This document shows positions 2,291 through 52,128 of a stretch of DNA of 64,000 nucleotides, piece after piece; positions within the stretch are counted from its first letter, which is position 1, and each line of letters opens with the position of its first letter. The translations under genes and the position numbers were made by a program. Source of the stretch: Planctomycetota bacterium (GTDB taxonomy: Bacteria > Planctomycetota > SZUA-567 > H5-PLA8); the NCBI GenBank assembly GCA_035628505.1, contig DASPJR010000104.1:1468-65467 (forward strand), given 5' to 3'. The notes under the pieces are model-generated. The model worked only from the letters and a program-made list of their open reading frames with translations, had not been told where the DNA came from and ran no database searches.

Positions 2291-3576
2291 CTGAGCGACG
2301 CCTCCGGAATGATCTGTTTCGGAATGTCCGGTCCGGACCAGCTCACGTGTATGCATGCATCGCCGTGGCCCTGCGAATAATTTATTTTGATGCGGTGTTT
2401 TCCCGCCTGCAGTGGAATGCTTTCTCCAATTTCCACAGCGCCGTGGCTGCCGTCGTTGTTGACCAGCAGCATATCGCCAAAGTATAGCAGCGATGCGTCA
2501 TCTGAATTTGAATAGAAGGTGTATGTTCCGTCCTTTGGAATTTCCACATAACCGATAAAGCTAACCGTCAGGTTATCTTCGCGGCCGAACGCGTCTTTGT
2601 ACCTGTCCTTATTAAACGAAATCTGCGGCACAACCTTGGATTGAATCTTCTTCAGTCCGCTGATGTTCACTCCAAACAGTGAATCGCCTTCAAAGTTCTT
2701 CTCGTATATGTGCGCCATCAGACCGGGAGTCGTGTTGTCGACCTTGTCTGGTGGCCGCACCGGAAGCGGCGGCAGTGTTTTCAGTTTTTCTGCGGCTTCC
2801 TTGCCGGCTTTGGTGCTCCGGTTCGACTGAACGAACTGTTCCAGACGGCGGCGGTATTCGTACGGGTTGGAACTGCTTTTCTGGATTTCTTCCCAGCGGC
2901 GTTGCGCGGAGCCTTCGCGAATGTCGTCGAGGACGTCTTCAGTGCGCGGCTTGGCTGGCTCAGGCTCGGGGCGTTTTGATTCAACGGGCTTGGGCGTTGT
3001 GTTCGTCGGCGCAACGACGACCGGAGGTTTGGATTCTGGCGTGGCCGGAGCAACTTCCGGCGGGTTCTTTTTCAGTGCTGGCGGCGCCGGGTTCTTACGC
3101 GACATGAGCATGAGGCCGAGCCCGGCCAGCACGACTCCCGCCAGCGCCAGAATCCAGATTGCAGTCTTGCTGCCTTCTGCACTGGGTCGTTCAGCCGAAC
3201 GCGTGGAGGGGACCGTTGTCGCGCGCATCTGTCCACTTCCGATGCGCGGCGGAGCGCCTCGCGAGACCGGCGGGGGCGCGTGCCGCATGCCGGTTCCAGG
3301 CGTGCTGCGTGTGCCGGTCGCTGGATTTGGGCGTTGAGGCGGATTGATGCCGCGGCTGTGCAGTCCGCTGCCTCCGATTTTCGTGGCATGAAATCCGCTT
3401 CCGCCACCGGAGCGCGCAGTATGCTGTCCGCTGGCGCCGGCGGCCGCTTTAGGAACCTTGGTTTCGGCGCAGGCCTTGCAGTAAATCTTCTCACCGATCG
3501 TGACGGATTCGTCGTTGTCGACGCGGATGTTGCAGCCATCGCAGTAATGAATGAACATGAAAGCTGCCCCGCGCAC
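2275..3576 (-). CDS. membrane-anchored PA14-domain protein with N-terminal CxxC..CxxC zinc ribbon
   Basis: N-terminus MFIHYCDGCNIRV..KIYCKAC (4-Cys ribbon), one TM helix (AIWILALAGVVLAGLGLMLM), Pro-rich linker, C-terminal GYVEIPKDGTYTFYSNSDDASLLYFGDMLLVNNDGSHG typical of PA14. The alternative ATG at 3558 gives the same protein minus 6 aa. Confidence 0.75.
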   Translation of the reverse strand: MRGAAFMFIHYCDGCNIRVDNDESVTIGEKIYCKACAETKVPKAAAGASGQHTARSGGGSGFHATKIGGSGLHSRGINPPQRPNPATGTRSTPGTGMRHAPPPVSRGAPPRIGSGQMRATTVPSTRSAERPSAEGSKTAIWILALAGVVLAGLGLMLMSRKNPAPPALKKNPPEVAPATPESKPPVVVAPTNTTPKPVESKRPEPEPAKPRTEDVLDDIREGSAQRRWEEIQKSSSNPYEYRRRLEQFVQSNRSTKAGKEAAEKLKTLPPLPVRPPDKVDNTTPGLMAHIYEKNFEGDSLFGVNISGLKKIQSKVVPQISFNKDRYKDAFGREDNLTVSFIGYVEIPKDGTYTFYSNSDDASLLYFGDMLLVNNDGSHGAVEIGESIPLQAGKHRIKINYSQGHGDACIHVSWSGPDIPKQIIPEASLSHGNE

Positions 3577-34883: not shown

Positions 34884-35128
34884 AGATTCGAATCTCGAAA
34901 TCCGAATTTCGAAATCCGAAACAAACTCAAATTCCCGAATGTTCAAGGCTCGAAACTGCAGCGCCAATCGACTTGACCACCTAGTCATATCCGGTTCCTC
35001 CAATTCTCTCCGTGAGCTTCGTGTTCTCCGTGTCTCCGTGTTGAAGTCGTGAAGAGCCGGTGCAGTTTCGAACATTTGGTTTTCGAGTTTTGGATTTGTT
35101 TCGAGTTTCGAATTTCGTGCTTCGGATT
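34884..35128. repeat. MITE-like intergenic element, copy A (245 bp), with termini built of CGAAATC heptamers and a GTTTCGAACATT core
   Basis: Left end GATTCGAATCTCGAAATCCGAATTTCGAAATCCGAAACAAACTCAAA. Right end TTTGTTTCGAGTTTCGAATTTCGTGCTTCGGATTTT. Related copies at 42320, 43377, 45872 and 51096. Confidence 0.7.
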
Positions 35129-38661: not shown

Positions 38662-38833
38662 CAGCAGAAGTCAACGCGTTGCCAATCATCAGCCGCGCAA
38701 CAGATCGAGTCAGTTTGACTTGTCATGCCCGTCAGGTTGTCAGCCCTCTAAGGCCCTCTAACACCCTCAATGGCCCTCAAGAGCCCTTGCGTCCCAAAAT
38801 CAAAATTTCATCCGCCGTATATGGAAGGGTTCC

Positions 38834-38876
38834 CGATTGCGGATTGCGGATTTCGGATTGCGGATTGGCGATCGGG
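38834..38876. repeat. heptanucleotide tandem repeat (GATTGCG/GATTTCG)n, about 6 units
   Basis: cGATTGCGGATTGCGGATTTCGGATTGCGGATTGGCGATCGG. Unit is the reverse complement of the CGAAATC heptamer that builds the MITE termini. Confidence 0.7.
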
Positions 38877-38883
38877 CGTTTCA

Positions 38884-38975
38884 GTGCAGTTTAGTGCGAT
38901 TCGATGCAATTGAGTGCCATTCGGTGCAGTTGAGTGCGATTCAGGTAATTTGAATGCATTTCGATGCTTTTCGAC
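38884..38975. repeat. degenerate 21-bp tandem repeat, about 4.5 copies (consensus GCAGTTGAGTGCGATTCGGT-like)
   Basis: gcagtttagtgcgattcgat / gcaattgagtgccattcggt / gcagttgagtgcgattcagg / taatttgaatgcatttcgat / gcttttcga read directly. Confidence 0.6.
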
Positions 38976-39039
38976 AGCTAGACTTCCAAAATCAATATTT
39001 CATCCGTCGTATAGATGTAACGCGACTTGCCAGGTAGCC

Positions 39040-39107
39040 TCCCGCTGGGACCGCCGGCGTCCCGCTCGAACAGCCGGCCTCCCGCTGGGACCGCCGGCGT
39101 CCCGCGG
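39040..39107. repeat. two 28-bp direct repeats (CCTCCCGCTGGGACCGCCGGCGTCCCGC) separated by 12 bp
   Basis: Direct reading. Followed by inverted repeat CCGGTGGC..GCCACCGG and by a 13-bp inverted repeat GGACATTAGCCGG (39134) / CCGGCTAATGTCC (39310). Confidence 0.6.
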
Positions 39108-39777
39108 GCCCGTGCGCTCCGGAGGAGCGCCCGGACATTAGCCGGTGGCAAGCGCGCAGCGCGTGGCCACCGGAAATAATCGCCAATCATTGGTTCCGCG
39201 CCTTGGAAGGGCGCCGCAACAACGCGCGGTTCATCCGGCGCCCCGCTTGGGCGCTTGATCGTAAATCGACGCTGTATTCCGGGCGCGCTCGCTGCCGCTC
39301 GCTAGCCGCCCGGCTAATGTCCAGGCGCCTCTCCGAGGCGCCTAGTGGCGCGAACTTCAGTTCGCGAGTGTATGTAACGCCAATTTTCAATTCGCGAATC
39401 ACTTTACACTCACGGGTTTACTCGCCGCTTGAAAAGCGGCGTTACATCGCGGCCACAGCACCATCGAAATCAATCTCTGCGTACTCTGCGCTCTCTGCGC
39501 CTCTGCGTTGAAGTCGTTATTCCGTTTGGCACCCGTCAAAAAGGGGGACAAGTGTGACGAAGCGCCCGAGCCGCCGTTTCTTGACCGCTGGTCAATGATG
39601 AAAACGTTGCGCACGCAGTGGCTCAACGGGATGATTGAGGGTTTCGGATAACGCTCCGGACGAACGGCACCGGAGATCGCCGTAGCCATGACGAGCAGGC
39701 GGAAATCTGAAAAATGCCGTACGTTCTCTACGATGGCGTACAACAGTATGTACAACATGCATTGTGGAGGATACTTC

Positions 39778-42319: not shown

Positions 42320-42448
42320 GCACGAAATGCGAAGTTCGAATTCTGAATACCAAATGTTCGAAACAGCTCGGCGCTCACCCGTTTCGAACATTCCATCATT
42401 CGAACTTTTGAGCATTGTTTCGGATTTAGAAATTCGAATGTCGGATTT
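42320..42448. repeat. MITE-like element copy B (about 130 bp, inverted relative to A) with palindromic core AATGTTCGAAAC-N16-GTTTCGAACATT
   Basis: AAGCACGAAATGCGAAGTTCGAATTC...AATGTTCGAAACagctcggcgctcacccGTTTCGAACATT...TTGTTTCGGATTTAGAAATTCGAATGTCGGATTT. Confidence 0.7.
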
Positions 42449-43376: not shown

Positions 43377-43516
43377 GAAGTTCCAAATTCCGAAATTTGA
43401 AACAAGTTCAAATGACCGAAAGACAAATGTTCGAAACGGATGGCATCCACCCGTTTCGAACATTCGTCATTTGAGATTTTGAATTTGTTTCGGATTTCGA
43501 AATTCGGATTTCGAGT
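43377..43516. repeat. MITE-like element copy C (about 140 bp) with core AATGTTCGAAAC-N15-GTTTCGAACATT
   Basis: GAAGTTCCAAATTCCGAAATTTGAAACAAG...AAATGTTCGAAACggatggcatccacccGTTTCGAACATTC...TTTGTTTCGGATTTCGAAATTCGGATTTCGAG. Abuts the stop codon of the PQQ gene. Confidence 0.7.
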
Positions 43517-44752
43517 TTACTTCGCTTTCACGTCGTAACACAGCAGCACGTCCTGGTCGCGAATGTAAAGTTTTCCGCCGGCGATGACCGGATGCGCCCA
43601 GCTGTGGGCTTTGCTGCGATCGGGCGGATCGAAGCGGCCTTTCTCTTTGTACGCTGCCGGCGTGGCTTCGACGAGGGCGATGCTGCCGGGGCCGCTTTCG
43701 CCGCGCATGTACAGGTGGCCGTCGGCGTAGGCGATGGCGCCCTTGCCGACACCTTTATCGCTCCAGGCAACGTTGCCCGTCTTCAGTTCCATGCACGTCC
43801 AGCCGCCGGAGTCGTTGAAGCCGTAAACGTGATCGCCGACTCGGATGACGCCGCCATGATGATTCTTCATCGACTTGTTCGCGTAAATCTGGTTTGTGCT
43901 GAACGCGCCGTTCTCAGCTTTCACTGCGAATGCATTGCAGCCGACGCCATAGCCGCTCGTGACGTAGACGAGGCCTTCGTGATAAATTGGCGTGCTGATC
44001 ACGGCGGTCGCACCAGCGCGGTCAGCGCGCCAGAGCAGCTTTCCATCCTTCGCACCGATGCCCGCCACACTCTGGCCGGTCAGCTGCAGGTACTGCGGCA
44101 CGCCGCCGATTTCGGCCGGCACAACCGAGGAATACGCCGCTGCATCCTTATAATCAGCCGTGCGCCAGACCAGTTCGCCGGTGGTCTTCTTCAGTGCAAG
44201 CACCGTGCCCTTCGGTCCGCCTGGCGTGAGAATAACGAGTTCGCCGTCAATCAGCGGCGATTCGCTATAACCCCAGCCCGACATCATTTTGCCGCCAAAG
44301 TCTTTTTCCATGTGCTTGCGCCAGACTTCGGCGCCGGTTTTTCCGTGGACACAGACGATTTCGCCGTACTGGCTCATGCCGATGACCACATCGCCCGAAA
44401 TCGCCGGCGTGCAGCGCGTGCCTGGATAACCGCCGCCGCCACCCACGCCGCCAACCTTCGCCGTCCACAGCACTTTACCGCTGAGATCGAGTGCGATGAT
44501 GCAGCTGTTGCCCTGCACGTCGCCCATCGTGAAGACTTTGCCGCCCGAAACAGAGACGCTCGAAAAGCCCGCGCCAACTCCCGTTGCGCGCCACGCCAGC
44601 GGCGGCCCCGCAGCCGGCCACTGTTTGAGCAAGCCTGTTTCGGTCGAGAGTCCGTCGCGCTTGGGGCCGCGCCACTGCGGCCAGTCGCCTTCTCCACCAA
44701 ACGCGGAGATGTTAATCAGAACCAGGAGAAGAAGTGTGCGAAGCGCGGCCAT
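43517..44752 (-). CDS. PQQ-like beta-propeller repeat protein, secreted
   Basis: Repeated ..G.VY..S.DG.L.ALD..TGK..W.. blades. Start set at ATG 44752 (signal peptide MAALRTLLLLVLINISAFG, GGAG RBS). Confidence 0.75.
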   Translation of the reverse strand: MAALRTLLLLVLINISAFGGEGDWPQWRGPKRDGLSTETGLLKQWPAAGPPLAWRATGVGAGFSSVSVSGGKVFTMGDVQGNSCIIALDLSGKVLWTAKVGGVGGGGGYPGTRCTPAISGDVVIGMSQYGEIVCVHGKTGAEVWRKHMEKDFGGKMMSGWGYSESPLIDGELVILTPGGPKGTVLALKKTTGELVWRTADYKDAAAYSSVVPAEIGGVPQYLQLTGQSVAGIGAKDGKLLWRADRAGATAVISTPIYHEGLVYVTSGYGVGCNAFAVKAENGAFSTNQIYANKSMKNHHGGVIRVGDHVYGFNDSGGWTCMELKTGNVAWSDKGVGKGAIAYADGHLYMRGESGPGSIALVEATPAAYKEKGRFDPPDRSKAHSWAHPVIAGGKLYIRDQDVLLCYDVKAK

Positions 44753-44991: not shown

Positions 44992-45867
44992 ATGTGGGAA
45001 CAGGCCATGCGGCTTCGACTTTTATCTTTGTCTCTGCTCGCGCTGGCGTGCGTGTTTTTTACGCCGGGCTGCGAGGAAGCGCGCGGTCTGGACCCGCGCG
45101 AGCGCGCCGCCATGACCGTTGTGTTCGAAGAAGCGCGTGCGCTTGACGAGCAGGGCCGCTACCACGAAGCGCTCGTGCGCTATGAAACAGTGCTCGCGCG
45201 GCACCCGCAGTTCATGTCCACTCGTCTGAACGCGGCGATGGCGGCGTACGATGCGGGCGCGTACGAAAAAGCGCGCGGCCATTTCGAAGTGCTCCACAAG
45301 TACGGGCCGGGCGACTGGTTCGTAATTCGTAAACTTATCCAGTGCTGCGAGCGCCTCAACGACAAGGAAGGCGTCGAAAGCTACCGCGCGAAATTAGAAA
45401 AGCTGCGCCAGCAGGCGGCTGGCAGCGTGGTGCTCAAGCGCTATGAAGGTCTCACTCGTGATTACATCCCGGTTGGATCGATGCATCTGATCGGCTATGA
45501 ATTCTTCGAGCCCAAAAAACACGGGCGGCTCTGGTTTTTCCGGCTCGAAGACAAGAACAAAGCGCCCGTGACTGCATTCCTGCTCGAAGCCACGCCCTTT
45601 CACGACAACAGCGGCAGACGTTTGTTCAGCCTGACCGAAGCGACCAACGGGTGGATGCGCATCTGGCACGTCGGCGTTGAAGGCCGCGAGTACGCGTGGA
45701 CGCGCGATGTTGTGCTCAGCTGTCTGCAGGGCAAGCGCCAGCCGCTGGTGGTCAAGCCGCTGCCCGCCGATTACGAAGTGCTCGCTGCGCCGGACTCAGC
45801 TCGGATCCCAAGTGAAGGAAAAGAACCACCGTCAGAGAAAGCGCCGATAGACGCAGAGAAAAAGTAA
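44992..45867 (+). CDS. hypothetical lipoprotein with TPR-like N-terminal region
   Basis: Signal peptide plus lipobox-like (LALACVFFTPGC). No specific family recognised. Confidence 0.55.
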   Translation: MWEQAMRLRLLSLSLLALACVFFTPGCEEARGLDPRERAAMTVVFEEARALDEQGRYHEALVRYETVLARHPQFMSTRLNAAMAAYDAGAYEKARGHFEVLHKYGPGDWFVIRKLIQCCERLNDKEGVESYRAKLEKLRQQAAGSVVLKRYEGLTRDYIPVGSMHLIGYEFFEPKKHGRLWFFRLEDKNKAPVTAFLLEATPFHDNSGRRLFSLTEATNGWMRIWHVGVEGREYAWTRDVVLSCLQGKRQPLVVKPLPADYEVLAAPDSARIPSEGKEPPSEKAPIDAEKK

Positions 45868-45871
45868 ATAC

Positions 45872-46003
45872 AGAATCCGAATTTCGAAACTCGAAACAAA
45901 TTCAGATGTTCAAAAGAATTAAGGATTAAAACGTCGCGCGCAATTGTTTCGAACTTTCCAACCTTGGAGCTTTAAATTTGTTTCGGATTTCGTGCTTCGG
46001 ATT
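45872..46003. repeat. MITE-like element copy D (about 130 bp)
   Basis: CAGAATCCGAATTTCGAAACTCGAAACAAATTCAGATGTTCAAAAG...TTGTTTCGAACTTTCC...AAATTTGTTTCGGATTTCGTGCTTCGGATT. Its right terminus contains the TTG start (45978) of the downstream gene. Confidence 0.7.
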
Positions 46004-47651
46004 AAGAATCTGCGCGCTCTGCGTGCTCGCCTCTGCCTGCGCGTACGGCGGCGATGCCGCGCCGGCGACCCCTGATCCCGTCGCGATTGCCGTTAAGAAA
46101 GCGCGTGAATTCTTCAAAGAACGCAAGTTCATCGAAGCGCTCGATCAGTTCGCGCTCGCTTTGACGCTCAAGCCGGAGGACCGCGACACGGCTTTCATGG
46201 CGGGCGTCGCTGCGTACTGGTCGCGGCAGCCCGCGCGCGCAATGGAGTTCTGGAACGAACTGCTGGATACGGCGCCGCGGAACAGCCGCGAAGAGTGGAA
46301 GCTTGAAACGCACCGGATCATGGCGCTGTACCAGCTCAATCAGCACGATGCCGCCGAAGCAGTTGCCGAACGCATTTACGATCTGCACAAGCGGTTCATG
46401 GTGCAGCGCGCGAGCGGCACTGCGGGCGCTGACGACAGTGTGTTCAGCGACGGCTTTGTACGCGAGCACATCTTTCTCACCGAACGCGTCACGGAGCAGG
46501 ACAGAAATGGCGCAGGCGTAAAAGACATGCAGCGCGTGCTGCGCGTGGGCTGCTGGGAGGTCTTCGACGACCGCAAAGAAGCGCAGAATATTTTTGCGTT
46601 CCCGGTCACCGTTCACAGTGCCAAAGACGACCCGCTGATCAAGCGGCTGGTTGTCGCCGTGAGCGTGTTGCCGGGCGGCGAAGCGGGCTATGTGCTGACG
46701 GAAGAAGGCGGAGAGGATCGCACCGTCTACAAGCGCTGGCTGCAGCGCCCGCCTTACGCGGAAGTGCGCACGCTCGTCCTGCAGGCCTTGAAAGGTAAAG
46801 CTGTACCACTGGCCCAAACGAAGAAGGCGCCCGCGCCGGCCGCTGCGGAATCGAAGACTCCAGTTGCATCTGGAAAGGTCTCTGCGCCTCAGTCGGAAGC
46901 ACCATCAGATGTGCGGCAGGCGGAAGCTCCGCCAGCTGCGCCGCAGCCGGAAGCGCCGAAGGAGCGCCTGTTCACGCAGGCCGAGCTCGGTTCGGCTGCC
47001 AAAGTAATGGCGCTGGGTCTTGAAACGCAAGCGGCGCAGATCCTCACGCTTGCCGGACGCTTGCGCGAAGTCGATCTGGACATCACGAAGCTGACGCGGC
47101 TTTCGCTGAGCGATCCGCAATTGGCCGAGCGATACCTCGAAGAAATGAAGGCAAAGTCTCCCTACGCGCAGGAAGACGCGGCGGAGCTGGTGGACTTTAT
47201 CGCGAAAGCAAAGAGTGAACATCTTGCGGCGGCGATGGAAAAGCTGCCGAAAATCGGCGCGCGCACGCCGTATCTCGACTACGTCCTGCTCACCGCGCTG
47301 AACACGCGCGGCAAGGACATGTACGCGTCGCTTCTTAAGGAATGTCAGAGCAGCGGCGACTTCATGGTGCGGCATACTGCATCGCTGATGCTGAGCCGCA
47401 GCGGCGACAAAAAAGCGATCGGCCATCTGGTCAGGGAGCTCACCGCGGCCGATGAGCTGGCCAGCAATATCGTTCAGGACTCTCTGGTCGAGCTGGTCGG
47501 GAACGACATCGCCGAACCGCCGCCAGGCAGCGGGCCGGCTCTGAAAAAGTGGAAGAGCGATGTTGCGCAGTGGTGGAATCAGAATGAACGCAAACTGGCG
47601 TTTAACGAGCAGCGGCGCGAGAGCGATCCGTATTGGAAGACACAGAAATAG
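45978..47651 (+). CDS. hypothetical secreted TPR/HEAT-repeat protein
   Basis: 557-aa ORF with N-terminal TPR-like and C-terminal HEAT-like repeats (LLKECQSSGDFMVRHTASLMLSRSGDKKAIGHLV). The only plausible start providing a signal peptide is TTG 45978, inside MITE copy D. Confidence 0.6.
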   Translation: MFRISCFGLRICALCVLASACAYGGDAAPATPDPVAIAVKKAREFFKERKFIEALDQFALALTLKPEDRDTAFMAGVAAYWSRQPARAMEFWNELLDTAPRNSREEWKLETHRIMALYQLNQHDAAEAVAERIYDLHKRFMVQRASGTAGADDSVFSDGFVREHIFLTERVTEQDRNGAGVKDMQRVLRVGCWEVFDDRKEAQNIFAFPVTVHSAKDDPLIKRLVVAVSVLPGGEAGYVLTEEGGEDRTVYKRWLQRPPYAEVRTLVLQALKGKAVPLAQTKKAPAPAAAESKTPVASGKVSAPQSEAPSDVRQAEAPPAAPQPEAPKERLFTQAELGSAAKVMALGLETQAAQILTLAGRLREVDLDITKLTRLSLSDPQLAERYLEEMKAKSPYAQEDAAELVDFIAKAKSEHLAAAMEKLPKIGARTPYLDYVLLTALNTRGKDMYASLLKECQSSGDFMVRHTASLMLSRSGDKKAIGHLVRELTAADELASNIVQDSLVELVGNDIAEPPPGSGPALKKWKSDVAQWWNQNERKLAFNEQRRESDPYWKTQK

Positions 47652-51095: not shown

Positions 51096-51232
51096 GCAAA
51101 TTCGAAATCCCAAATTCGAAATCCGAAACAAATTCAAAGGACCGAAATTCGAAGGCTCAAAACTCGTGGTTTTGAACAGTTGAATTTTGAAATTCGAATT
51201 TGTTTCGAATTTCGTGCTTCGGATTTCGAATT
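51096..51232. repeat. MITE-like element copy E (about 137 bp)
   Basis: GCAAATTCGAAATCCCAAATTCGAAATCCGAAACAAATTCAAAGG...GTTTTGAACAG...TTTGTTTCGAATTTCGTGCTTCGGATTTCGAATTT. Confidence 0.7.
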
Positions 51233-51245
51233 TATCCGTTACGCC

Positions 51246-51294
51246 CTCGTCACTCGTCACTCGTCACTCGTCACTCGTCACTCGTCACTCGTCA
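51246..51294. repeat. perfect heptanucleotide microsatellite (CTCGTCA)x7
   Basis: ctcgtcactcgtcactcgtcactcgtcactcgtcactcgtcactcgtca read directly, immediately 3' of the stop of the isomerase gene (51301) and adjacent to MITE copy E. Confidence 0.9.
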
Positions 51295-51300
51295 CGAGTT

Positions 51301-52128
51301 CTAAAGCACCAGATCCAGCGTCTGCGCCGCGTAATGGTGGCTGGCCAGCGCCTGCTGCTGGAGGCTCTTGCTTCCTTTCTCCAGTTCCACCGTCGCCCAG
51401 CCGGAGAACTCAACGTCCAGCAGCGTGTCGACGAAATCTTCCAGGTTCAGCGTGCCCTTGCCCAGTTCAACCGTTTGGAATTTCGGACCGGTGTCGCCTT
51501 TTTTCTTCTTCGCCGCAAGCGGCTTGATATCGCGCAAATGCACGGCCCCGATCCGCTTTTTGTGTTCCTTGATGAACTTGCCGATGGGAATTTCCGCGGC
51601 AGCTAAAAACGCCACATCGACGCACAGTTTCATCGCCGCCGGATCGGAATACTCGATGAACTTCTCGAGCATCTTCGTGTCATTGACGAGGCTGGCCGTA
51701 TCGGGGTGCAGGCAGGGAAGGATACCCATTTCCTGCGTACGGCGCGCAATTTCGCCAAAGGCAGTGGCGACGGGAATCAGATCCGCTTCGTCTTCCAGCG
51801 GCTGGTCGGGATTGGGCTTGGGCGGCATAAGCGTCAGGATTTTGGCGTTGGCGCTCTTCAGGAAGCGAACGATGTTCAGGCTGCGTTCGACTTCCTCTTC
51901 CAGACTCATGCCGGGCCACTTGTTAGGTGTGGTGGTGATTGCGATGAGCTGGATGCCGTGTCCCTGCAGAATCTCGTTGAACACCTCGACGCGGTCCTCG
52001 TACTGCTCGACCACGCCCGTGGTTGTTTCGATGCCGCGGAAGCCTGCCTTTTCGATGTCAGACAACGCGTTGATAAAGCCATCATCGCCCCAGGCGGCGG
52101 TGTGGCATGCCAGTTCAATGTCAGCCAT
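51301..52128 (-). CDS. sugar phosphate isomerase/epimerase (xylose-isomerase-like TIM barrel)
   Basis: AP-endonuclease-2/xylose-isomerase-like TIM fold motifs (LACHTAAWGDD.., AVHLRD). 275 aa. Confidence 0.7.
   Translation of the reverse strand: MADIELACHTAAWGDDGFINALSDIEKAGFRGIETTTGVVEQYEDRVEVFNEILQGHGIQLIAITTTPNKWPGMSLEEEVERSLNIVRFLKSANAKILTLMPPKPNPDQPLEDEADLIPVATAFGEIARRTQEMGILPCLHPDTASLVNDTKMLEKFIEYSDPAAMKLCVDVAFLAAAEIPIGKFIKEHKKRIGAVHLRDIKPLAAKKKKGDTGPKFQTVELGKGTLNLEDFVDTLLDVEFSGWATVELEKGSKSLQQQALASHHYAAQTLDLVL

Follow-up and report, generated by a model that had tools for sequence, protein, structure and literature searches.

The locus considered here lies in a 64,000-nucleotide stretch of a Planctomycetota contig (DASPJR010000104.1), hereafter the window, and concerns the 5′ end of a gene that abuts a short palindromic repeat element. 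The gene (45978 to 47651, plus strand), delimited from the open reading frame (ORF) list, homologues and Pfam comparisons, encodes a secreted repeat protein of 557 amino acids whose Pfam matches to TPR and HEAT repeats are weak and fall under the cut-offs. Twenty-three homologues of this protein were found, and it is identical to NCBI HYG75518.1 (P0024), labelled ‘Planctomycetota bacterium’. The gene is preceded by a paralogue encoding a 291-residue TPR protein (44992 to 45867, plus strand, from the ORF list, with Pfam matches to TPR_16 and TPR_19), which has its own signal or lipoprotein-like N-terminus and whose TAA stop codon (45865-45867) directly adjoins copy D of the repeat element, an inverted repeat at 45868 to 46009 (profile span 45869-46009). 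Comparison with orthologous loci, which were taken from genomes and metagenomes (a genome scan gave four relatives among Planctomycetota metagenome-assembled genomes), indicates that TTG 45978 is probably the functional start of the 557-residue protein, with the right arm of copy D supplying the ribosome-binding site, the start codon and approximately the first ten residues of the signal peptide.

Copy D is one of five copies (A to E) that an nhmmer arm profile recovered from the window as ten arms; the terminal motif AATCCGAAnnnCGAAAnnCGAAACAAA has eight matches in the window, compared with zero expected from 100 shuffles. The copies are all intergenic, measure 124-139 bp (copy A 234 bp) and contain no transposase ORF. 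Their arms are composed of 7-nt units (AATCCGA/TTTCGGA), and the terminal inverted repeats share an arm consensus common to all five copies, those of copy D being ~40 nt in length and 75% complementary. Several element ends begin with TAAAT or TAAAC, and two adjoin TAA stop codons. [quoted passage not shown] No transposase with matching ends was found within the window, the collection scans having been directed at orthologues of the protein, and no known structured RNA was matched in Rfam at E <= 1 between 45600 and 46300.

Within copy D, an A-rich left arm (45874-45913) and a T-rich right arm (45964-46003), 40 nt each, flank a GTTCGAAAC-type core, and nhmmer delimits the arms as 45869-45917 (plus) and 46009-45959 (minus) at E about 1e-12. 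The sequence-only reading had placed the opening of the ORF inside the right arm, and both the coordinates and the arms were verified: from TTG 45978 (45978-45980, plus strand) the ORF start reads MFRISCFGLRICALCVLASACAYGGD, this TTG being the first start codon after the in-frame TAA at 45927 that closes the frame upstream (open from 45930), as well as the start selected by the NCBI pipeline (557 aa). Ten stop-free codons, in frame with the gene, lead from the TTG to ATC 46008, and they are considered element-derived (45978-46007, plus strand; MFRISCFGLR) from their translation and from the family consensus in that frame. In the profile alignment the right arm reaches 46009, which makes all of codons 1-10 (TTG to AGA) element-like; the exact right boundary of copy D lies somewhere in 45998-46009 and is not fixable to the nucleotide. 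Read in the TTG frame, the family consensus is LFRIS[CK]FG[FL]R (LFRISCFGFR in copy E, LFRISKFGFR in copy C), from which copy D departs, relative to copy E, by two synonymous changes (CGA>CGG and CGA>AGA) and one replacement (TTT>TTA, F>L). Because this consensus frame is stop-free, has no acidic residue and contains two Arg, the element arm already meets the loose needs of a signal-peptide n-region. A GGAG Shine-Dalgarno (SD) core is located at 45966-45969 (plus strand), 8 nt upstream of the TTG; it is derived, and common only to copy D and its orthologous copy in a sister lineage described below, the other copies having TTCGAG, TTTGAG or TTTGAA.

Initiation at the TTG would yield an N-terminus with an n-region charge of +2 (Arg3 and Arg10, no acidic residue) and a 15-residue hydrophobic run from residue 11, in which the h-region ICALCVLASACA is followed by candidate cleavage sites A-S-A/C, A-C-A/Y or Y-G-G/D. 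In a heuristic check, the charged n-region, hydrophobic core and small-residue c-region of a credible Sec signal peptide were thus all present, as had been suggested from the sequence, and the candidate cleavage region aligns with the orthologue sites ...FAG/E and ...FSG/E. A lipoprotein reading (L-A-S-A-C) was set aside, the Cys near the cleavage site not being conserved among orthologues and the -3 position being atypical.

The segment ICALCVLASACAYGG, which holds the hydrophobic core and the cleavage region ahead of D26 (46008-46052, plus strand), was assigned to the gene itself through DNA homology to the orthologous loci L021 and L022. In the codon alignment the window reads AGA ATC TGC GCG CTC TGC GTG CTC GCC TCT GCC, L021 reads CGT TCT ATC TGC GCC ... 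and L022 reads AGA AAC ATC TCT TTC CTA CTC TGC GTC CTC TGC GCC TCT GCG. As ATC is common to L021 and L022, in both of which the real starts lie upstream, ATC 46008 is an ancestral Ile codon and the hydrophobic core is native. A decayed ATG at this position, considered because the sister lineage has ATG there, was ruled out, since L021 and L022 share ATC as Ile and the sister ATG is derived. TTG 45978 is the only canonical start that retains the hydrophobic core. Its duplex with the anti-SD sequence (assumed generic) is predicted at -5.6 kcal/mol, compared with -3.3 at ATC 46008 and -0.4 at GTG 46023, the next in-frame start; reference values are a median of -6.6 for likely window starts (a yardstick set selected in part for having an SD) and, for all NTG codons, a mean of -2.4. 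A GGAG, GAGG or AGGA core stands 5-11 nt before a plausible start in about 20/37 window genes, and the SD strength at TTG 45978 is typical of real starts in this genome.

The orthologous proteins carry signal peptides of 19-31 residues in which K or R is usual in the first few positions and a hydrophobic run of 12-24 uncharged residues typically ends in A/G-x-G/A ahead of E/D-P. Their n-regions are unrelated to each other in sequence and are net-positive in all but two cases, i.e., L019 (MMYIQSF...) and L021 (net charge 0). The 291-residue paralogue keeps its place before the orthologue, in synteny, in 14 distinct related loci (18 counting every fetched locus), and in nine orthologous loci the downstream start overlaps or almost adjoins the stop codon of this paralogue: as an ATGA overlap in seven (L003, L010, L011, L014, L016, L017 and L026), as TGATG in L007 and as TAAaaATG in L008. 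In the window, the TAA is followed by 110 nt of element before the TTG. The presence/absence comparison thus consists of spacer-free ATGA or TGATG junctions in eight orthologous loci, which are not a nucleotide-exact empty site, and the exact terminal inverted repeat pattern of the element was not found in the fetched orthologous loci. The start/stop overlap in orthologous loci argues that the element displaced the native start, and ancestrally, therefore, the two genes would have been translationally coupled, with the n-region of the second encoded in unique DNA that is now gone from the window lineage. The sequence-only reading had held that orthologues whose signal peptides come from DNA outside repeats would speak against an element-derived N-terminus. 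Such orthologues do exist, but they leave the idea standing, since the N-terminal regions are not conserved in sequence and the corresponding DNA has been lost in this lineage. At another locus, L002, a 107-aa membrane-like ORF (2693-3016) is inserted between the paralogues and its TGA overlaps the downstream GTG (GTGA), i.e., translational coupling is re-established with a new partner.

The sister lineage, represented by loci L001, L006, L029 and L030, encodes a protein that is 70% identical to the 557-residue product, while four-fold degenerate sites are 0.42-0.53 identical between window and sister (0.49 central) against a compositional baseline of 0.33, suggesting a divergence of roughly one substitution per synonymous site. 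The contrast between 70% amino acid identity and a four-fold-site identity of 0.49 points to purifying selection on the gene, which has continued since the insertion, so that a functional start has to exist upstream of the hydrophobic core. In the sister the left arm (corresponding to 45868-45929) has been lost, and with it the hairpin fold, and the spacer just upstream of the retained segment is full of indels. The sister nevertheless retains GGAG-N8-TTG and ten in-frame codons, 33/47 nt being identical in an ungapped alignment (P = 0.003 against a four-fold identity of 0.49, and 0.012 against 0.53). Over codons 1-11, 24/33 nt are identical with no indel, and the differences in the Arg3 and Arg10 codons (CGG/CGA and AGA/CGA) are synonymous. 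The ORF calls in the sister are of 522 aa (TTG) or 512 aa (ATG), and the initiation region of its TTG is predicted to be more accessible than that of its derived ATG (opening costs of 11.7 and 16.0 kcal/mol). The sister copy is too diverged to be scored against the family profile, and no further family copies were found in about 20 kb of sister contigs; these two observations argue for one old insertion as opposed to two recent ones. Independent insertions in the window and sister lineages were considered and judged unlikely in view of the same position, the same 30-nt frame and the shared derived GGAG.

The following sequence of events would account for these observations. An ancestor may have possessed coupled TPR paralogues, the ATG of the second gene forming an ATGA overlap with the TGA of the first and unique DNA encoding a short basic n-region ahead of the hydrophobic core. 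A non-coding inverted repeat of ~130 bp would have been inserted at this junction in the common ancestor of the present genome and the sister, presumably displacing the native start and n-region. The right arm could be read in frame as TTG-TTT-CGN-ATT-TCG-TGC-TTC-GGA-TTN-CGA (M-F-R-I-S-C-F-G-F/L-R), which gives a start codon and then, with neither stops nor acidic residues, a peptide containing two Arg; upstream of an intact hydrophobic core, this would suffice for Sec export. One T-to-G change upstream would have created GGAG at optimal spacing. Translation would now most likely proceed from TTG 45978, giving a predicted signal peptide of 25 residues, MFRISCFGLR followed by ICALCVLASACAYGG, of which the first ten would be element-derived, with cleavage expected around ASA/C, ACA/Y or GG/D. 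Since the full hairpin in the present genome would mask the initiation region, expression probably needs a transcript that starts inside the element, or melting of the hairpin; the sister may have removed the masking by deleting the left arm.

In addition to the partly SD-based selection of the yardstick set, several observations weigh against this proposal. An in-frame TTG is expected by chance in ~1/3 of insertions, the arm having no stop in frame; the ORF extension alone is thus no evidence, and it is the comparative data that constitute it. The JGI, ENA and Logan callers choose GTG 46023 (542 aa). The sister has an alternative start in the derived ATG that replaces the Ile codon, and the sole single nucleotide polymorphism between the sister strains, R3Q (CGA>CAA; L029 position 4008 versus L030 position 6008, from 3486 aligned nt of two strains), falls in the element-derived third codon, which suggests that protein-level constraint on the element-derived segment is weak. 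Folded as RNA, 45860-46030 gives a predicted element hairpin of -45 kcal/mol (z = -2.1), in which the SD and the TTG pair with the left arm on a read-through mRNA. The cost of opening the region from -15 to +12 around the TTG is then 18.3 kcal/mol, compared with 10.9 +/- 3.0 for likely window starts, and falls to 8.1 kcal/mol for an mRNA with its 5′ end at 45930. The interval 45700-46200 gave no sigma-70-type promoter, planctomycete promoters being poorly known. Finally, the right half may have been conserved for a non-coding function.

This last point can be extended to a reading in which the right half was kept as a promoter or operator, as a hairpin for mRNA processing or stability, or as residual transposition signals, while the insertion has silenced or is pseudogenising the gene. 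The full hairpin does mask all three candidate initiation regions, elements stand directly upstream of several genes (copies B and D), and palindromic elements in other bacteria act as promoters, terminators and RNase targets (PMC10969869, PMC3184786). However, the coding sequence is intact over 557 codons, with 70% amino acid identity to a sister in which four-fold sites are near saturation; the sister, without the hairpin, still keeps GGAG-N8-TTG and the frame; and no promoter-like site was found at the locus. A regulatory function would, furthermore, not exclude use of the TTG, and the non-coding reading is considered unlikely.

A start at GTG 46023 (46023-46025, plus strand; the start of the JGI, ENA and Logan calls) would make the element mere upstream non-coding DNA and the protein a cytoplasmic or non-functional product that has lost its signal peptide. 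It draws on the three automatic calls of 542 aa, on the chance element in a TTG that is constant and in a stop-free frame in every copy's arm (a one-in-three coincidence), and on the burial of that TTG in the read-through hairpin. GTT and GTC are unable to initiate, and opposite GTG 46023 the alignment has GTT for the sister and GTC for L022, with the preceding residues conserved (I-C-A-L-C / L-C-V-L), which argues that the GTG encodes a Val within the hydrophobic core and is no start. It also lacks an SD (-0.4 kcal/mol) and is occluded in both transcript models (18.3 and 16.5 kcal/mol). The sequence-only reading was right that this next in-frame start leaves no signal peptide: MLASACAYGGD offers a 10-residue uncharged run and nothing more, whereas every orthologue has a signal peptide and the gene is still under purifying selection. 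Initiation at the GTG is accordingly rated very unlikely, and, between exaptation of the element and a mis-assigned start, the two options left open from the sequence, the orthologue junctions, the GTT and GTC codons, the TTG kept in the sister and the NCBI call favour exaptation.

Least probable is near-cognate initiation at the element boundary (ATC 46008 or ATT 45987) giving a very short uncharged signal peptide, MCALCVLASACAYGG, for although a start-capable codon stands at the equivalent position in the sister (ATG), in L007 and L008 (internal ATG) and in L009 (TTG), L019 and L021 manage without net-positive n-regions, and ATC 46008 lies just 3′ of the hairpin, the ATC is an Ile codon shared with L021 and L022, whose real starts are upstream, its SD is weak (-3.3 kcal/mol) and its read-through opening cost the highest (20.0 kcal/mol), a charge-free signal peptide of 15 residues is atypical of the family, and ATC and ATT are very poor initiators in studied bacteria.

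Palindromic repeats were also encountered at the same gene boundary in other orthologues. The same junction holds a different palindromic element in L009 (P0018, about 40% identity), with arms at 550-583 and 617-650 that are 94% complementary (fold z = -8.3); the annotated ATG is in the hairpin loop, the right arm encodes QSKIQNPKSKI and the n-region is MTATRPRQSKIQNPKSKIR. L022 has yet another palindrome (fold z = -5.2) ahead of core DNA that begins with ATC and is homologous to that of the window, and all three canonical start candidates fall inside the palindrome, giving ...LLTRNQKLETRN-ISFLLCVLCASAA. L022 has a different upstream neighbour, while the window and L009 elements stand at the operon junction. 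Three lineages (window plus sister, L009 and L022) thus each have a different palindrome immediately upstream of the hydrophobic core, encoding a K/R-rich, stop-free peptide. The 5′ boundary of the gene would, on these sequences, be repeatedly invaded by repeats, with the N-terminus rebuilt from them. It may have been struck independently in the three lineages, and this forms part of a broader proposal, put forward only tentatively and regarded as doubtful, that the heptamer-repeat palindromes of Planctomycetota are pre-adapted, recurrent donors of translation-initiation regions and signal-peptide n-regions. The insertion would also turn a coupled gene pair into two separately initiated genes, of which the hairpin could gate the second.

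Some further features of these repeats were recorded. The L009 palindrome (548-660) is built of AATCCAAAAT units and that of L022 (2396-2488) of AACCAGAAACC units, both with arm polarity opposite to that of the window element, and L009 shares the 9-mer TTCGTGCTT with the right end of the window element, just before the hydrophobic core. A (GGGGTCA)n spacer occupies the junction in L019 (1289-1380), and repeats occur at the gene 5′ end in L025 (2440-2480, CTTGGCG-type) and L012 (2420-2450, CGCGTTCATC-type).

Nearly any short basic sequence can serve as the n-region of a Sec signal peptide, which makes replacement of the n-region mechanistically easy, and N-terminal signal-peptide remodelling usually originates from point mutations or indels in unique DNA. 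Copy D would differ from such ordinary start-codon migration in that a repeat element was captured. Among the known small repeats, Correia/NEMIS elements of Neisseria and ERIC, BOX and RUP repeats form hairpins that alter downstream expression through transcription or mRNA stability. Like copy D, they are inverted repeats of ~100-150 bp that lie near gene starts and are co-transcribed (PMC3184786, PMC10969869); unlike copy D, donation of coding sequence and a start codon is not a described role for them, and there is no sequence relationship.

Other parallels are found among elements that join coding sequences. Rickettsia palindromic elements (RPEs) are inserted in genomic ORFs and translated as in-frame fusions (PMC10969869). 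As with copy D, a short palindromic non-autonomous repeat joins the coding sequence in frame and the host gene stays functional; the difference is that copy D lies at the 5′ boundary, where it would provide ribosome-binding site, start codon and n-region alike and so replace the native initiation region. The review text of PMC10969869 makes no mention of start-codon, ribosome-binding-site or signal-peptide donation by elements. The QMITE1 and QMITE2 elements of Coxiella burnetii are described as having ends that overlap gene ends, where they provide terminal residues or stop codons, and as encoding strongly basic peptides (PMC5896051). QMITEs and the window element are alike in having ends at TAA stops (copies C and D) and an arm encoding an Arg-containing, acid-free peptide, whereas the QMITE cases described concern 3′ ends (C-terminal residues and stop codons) and mid-ORF insertions, and copy D a 5′ end (PMC5896051). 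Donation of a start codon, N-terminus or signal peptide is not mentioned in that paper. A stem-loop of IS605 in Borrelia (PMC2775950) was dismissed as a precedent, since it concerns lipoprotein genes at their 3′ ends. In-frame MITE fusions are therefore already documented, and the new aspect would be the donation of a start codon together with part of a signal peptide.

If correct, the proposal for copy D would represent a datable bacterial case in which a non-coding mobile repeat was exapted as a whole 5′ gene end that comprises the ribosome-binding site, the start codon and the charged portion of an export signal, and kept over about one substitution per synonymous site. As an example of exaptation it appears well-supported, if mechanistically unsurprising. 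Recurrence with different elements in two other orthologues suggests a possible general route of N-terminus repair or remodelling. There is also a consequence for annotation: the starts chosen by different gene callers lie 15 codons apart here and 10 apart in the sister, the majority call strips a secreted protein of its signal peptide, and repeat-rich Planctomycetota genomes may contain many such mis-called starts.

The remaining copies in the window, like copy D listed without strand, are copy A (34894-35127), which is long and has an internal insertion of ~100 bp; copy B (42323-42446), which is degenerate and was detected with the arm profile; copy C (43378-43516), whose right end adjoins a minus-strand TAA stop; and copy E (51100-51231), which is the best preserved and served as reference for the right-arm consensus. 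The insertion in copy A (34950-35060) holds a (TCTCCGTGT)x4 array. Twenty nucleotides separate the end of copy B from TTG 42467 of an esterase-like gene; this TTG has its own GGAG 8 nt upstream, outside copy B, and yields a signal peptide (MLNRSLPTPCRLGVLAVLSSSLFAG), which the ENA caller truncates by starting the gene 14 codons later (274 versus 288 aa). This is a start mis-call of the type seen at copy D. The TAA beside copy C (43517-43519, minus strand) belongs to a PQQ/BamB-like gene, and copy C at its right end and copy D at its left adjoin TAA stops in a common context, AAG TAA A... (43510-43519 and 45865-45875), so that element termini may carry or target TAA. Directly after the right end of copy E, a perfect tandem repeat, (CTCGTCA)x7 (51246-51295), stands just before the stop of a minus-strand gene (51301-52128). 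The intergenic region 38741-39508 is dense in unrelated tandem arrays, including (GATTGCG)x4.7 and 20-mers x3. Within the 557-aa coding sequence, a 27-nt tandem repeat of 2.7 copies (46883-46954) encodes a Pro/Ala/Glu-rich linker (…APQSEAPSDVRQAEAPPAAPQPEAP…), the length and sequence of which vary greatly among orthologues.

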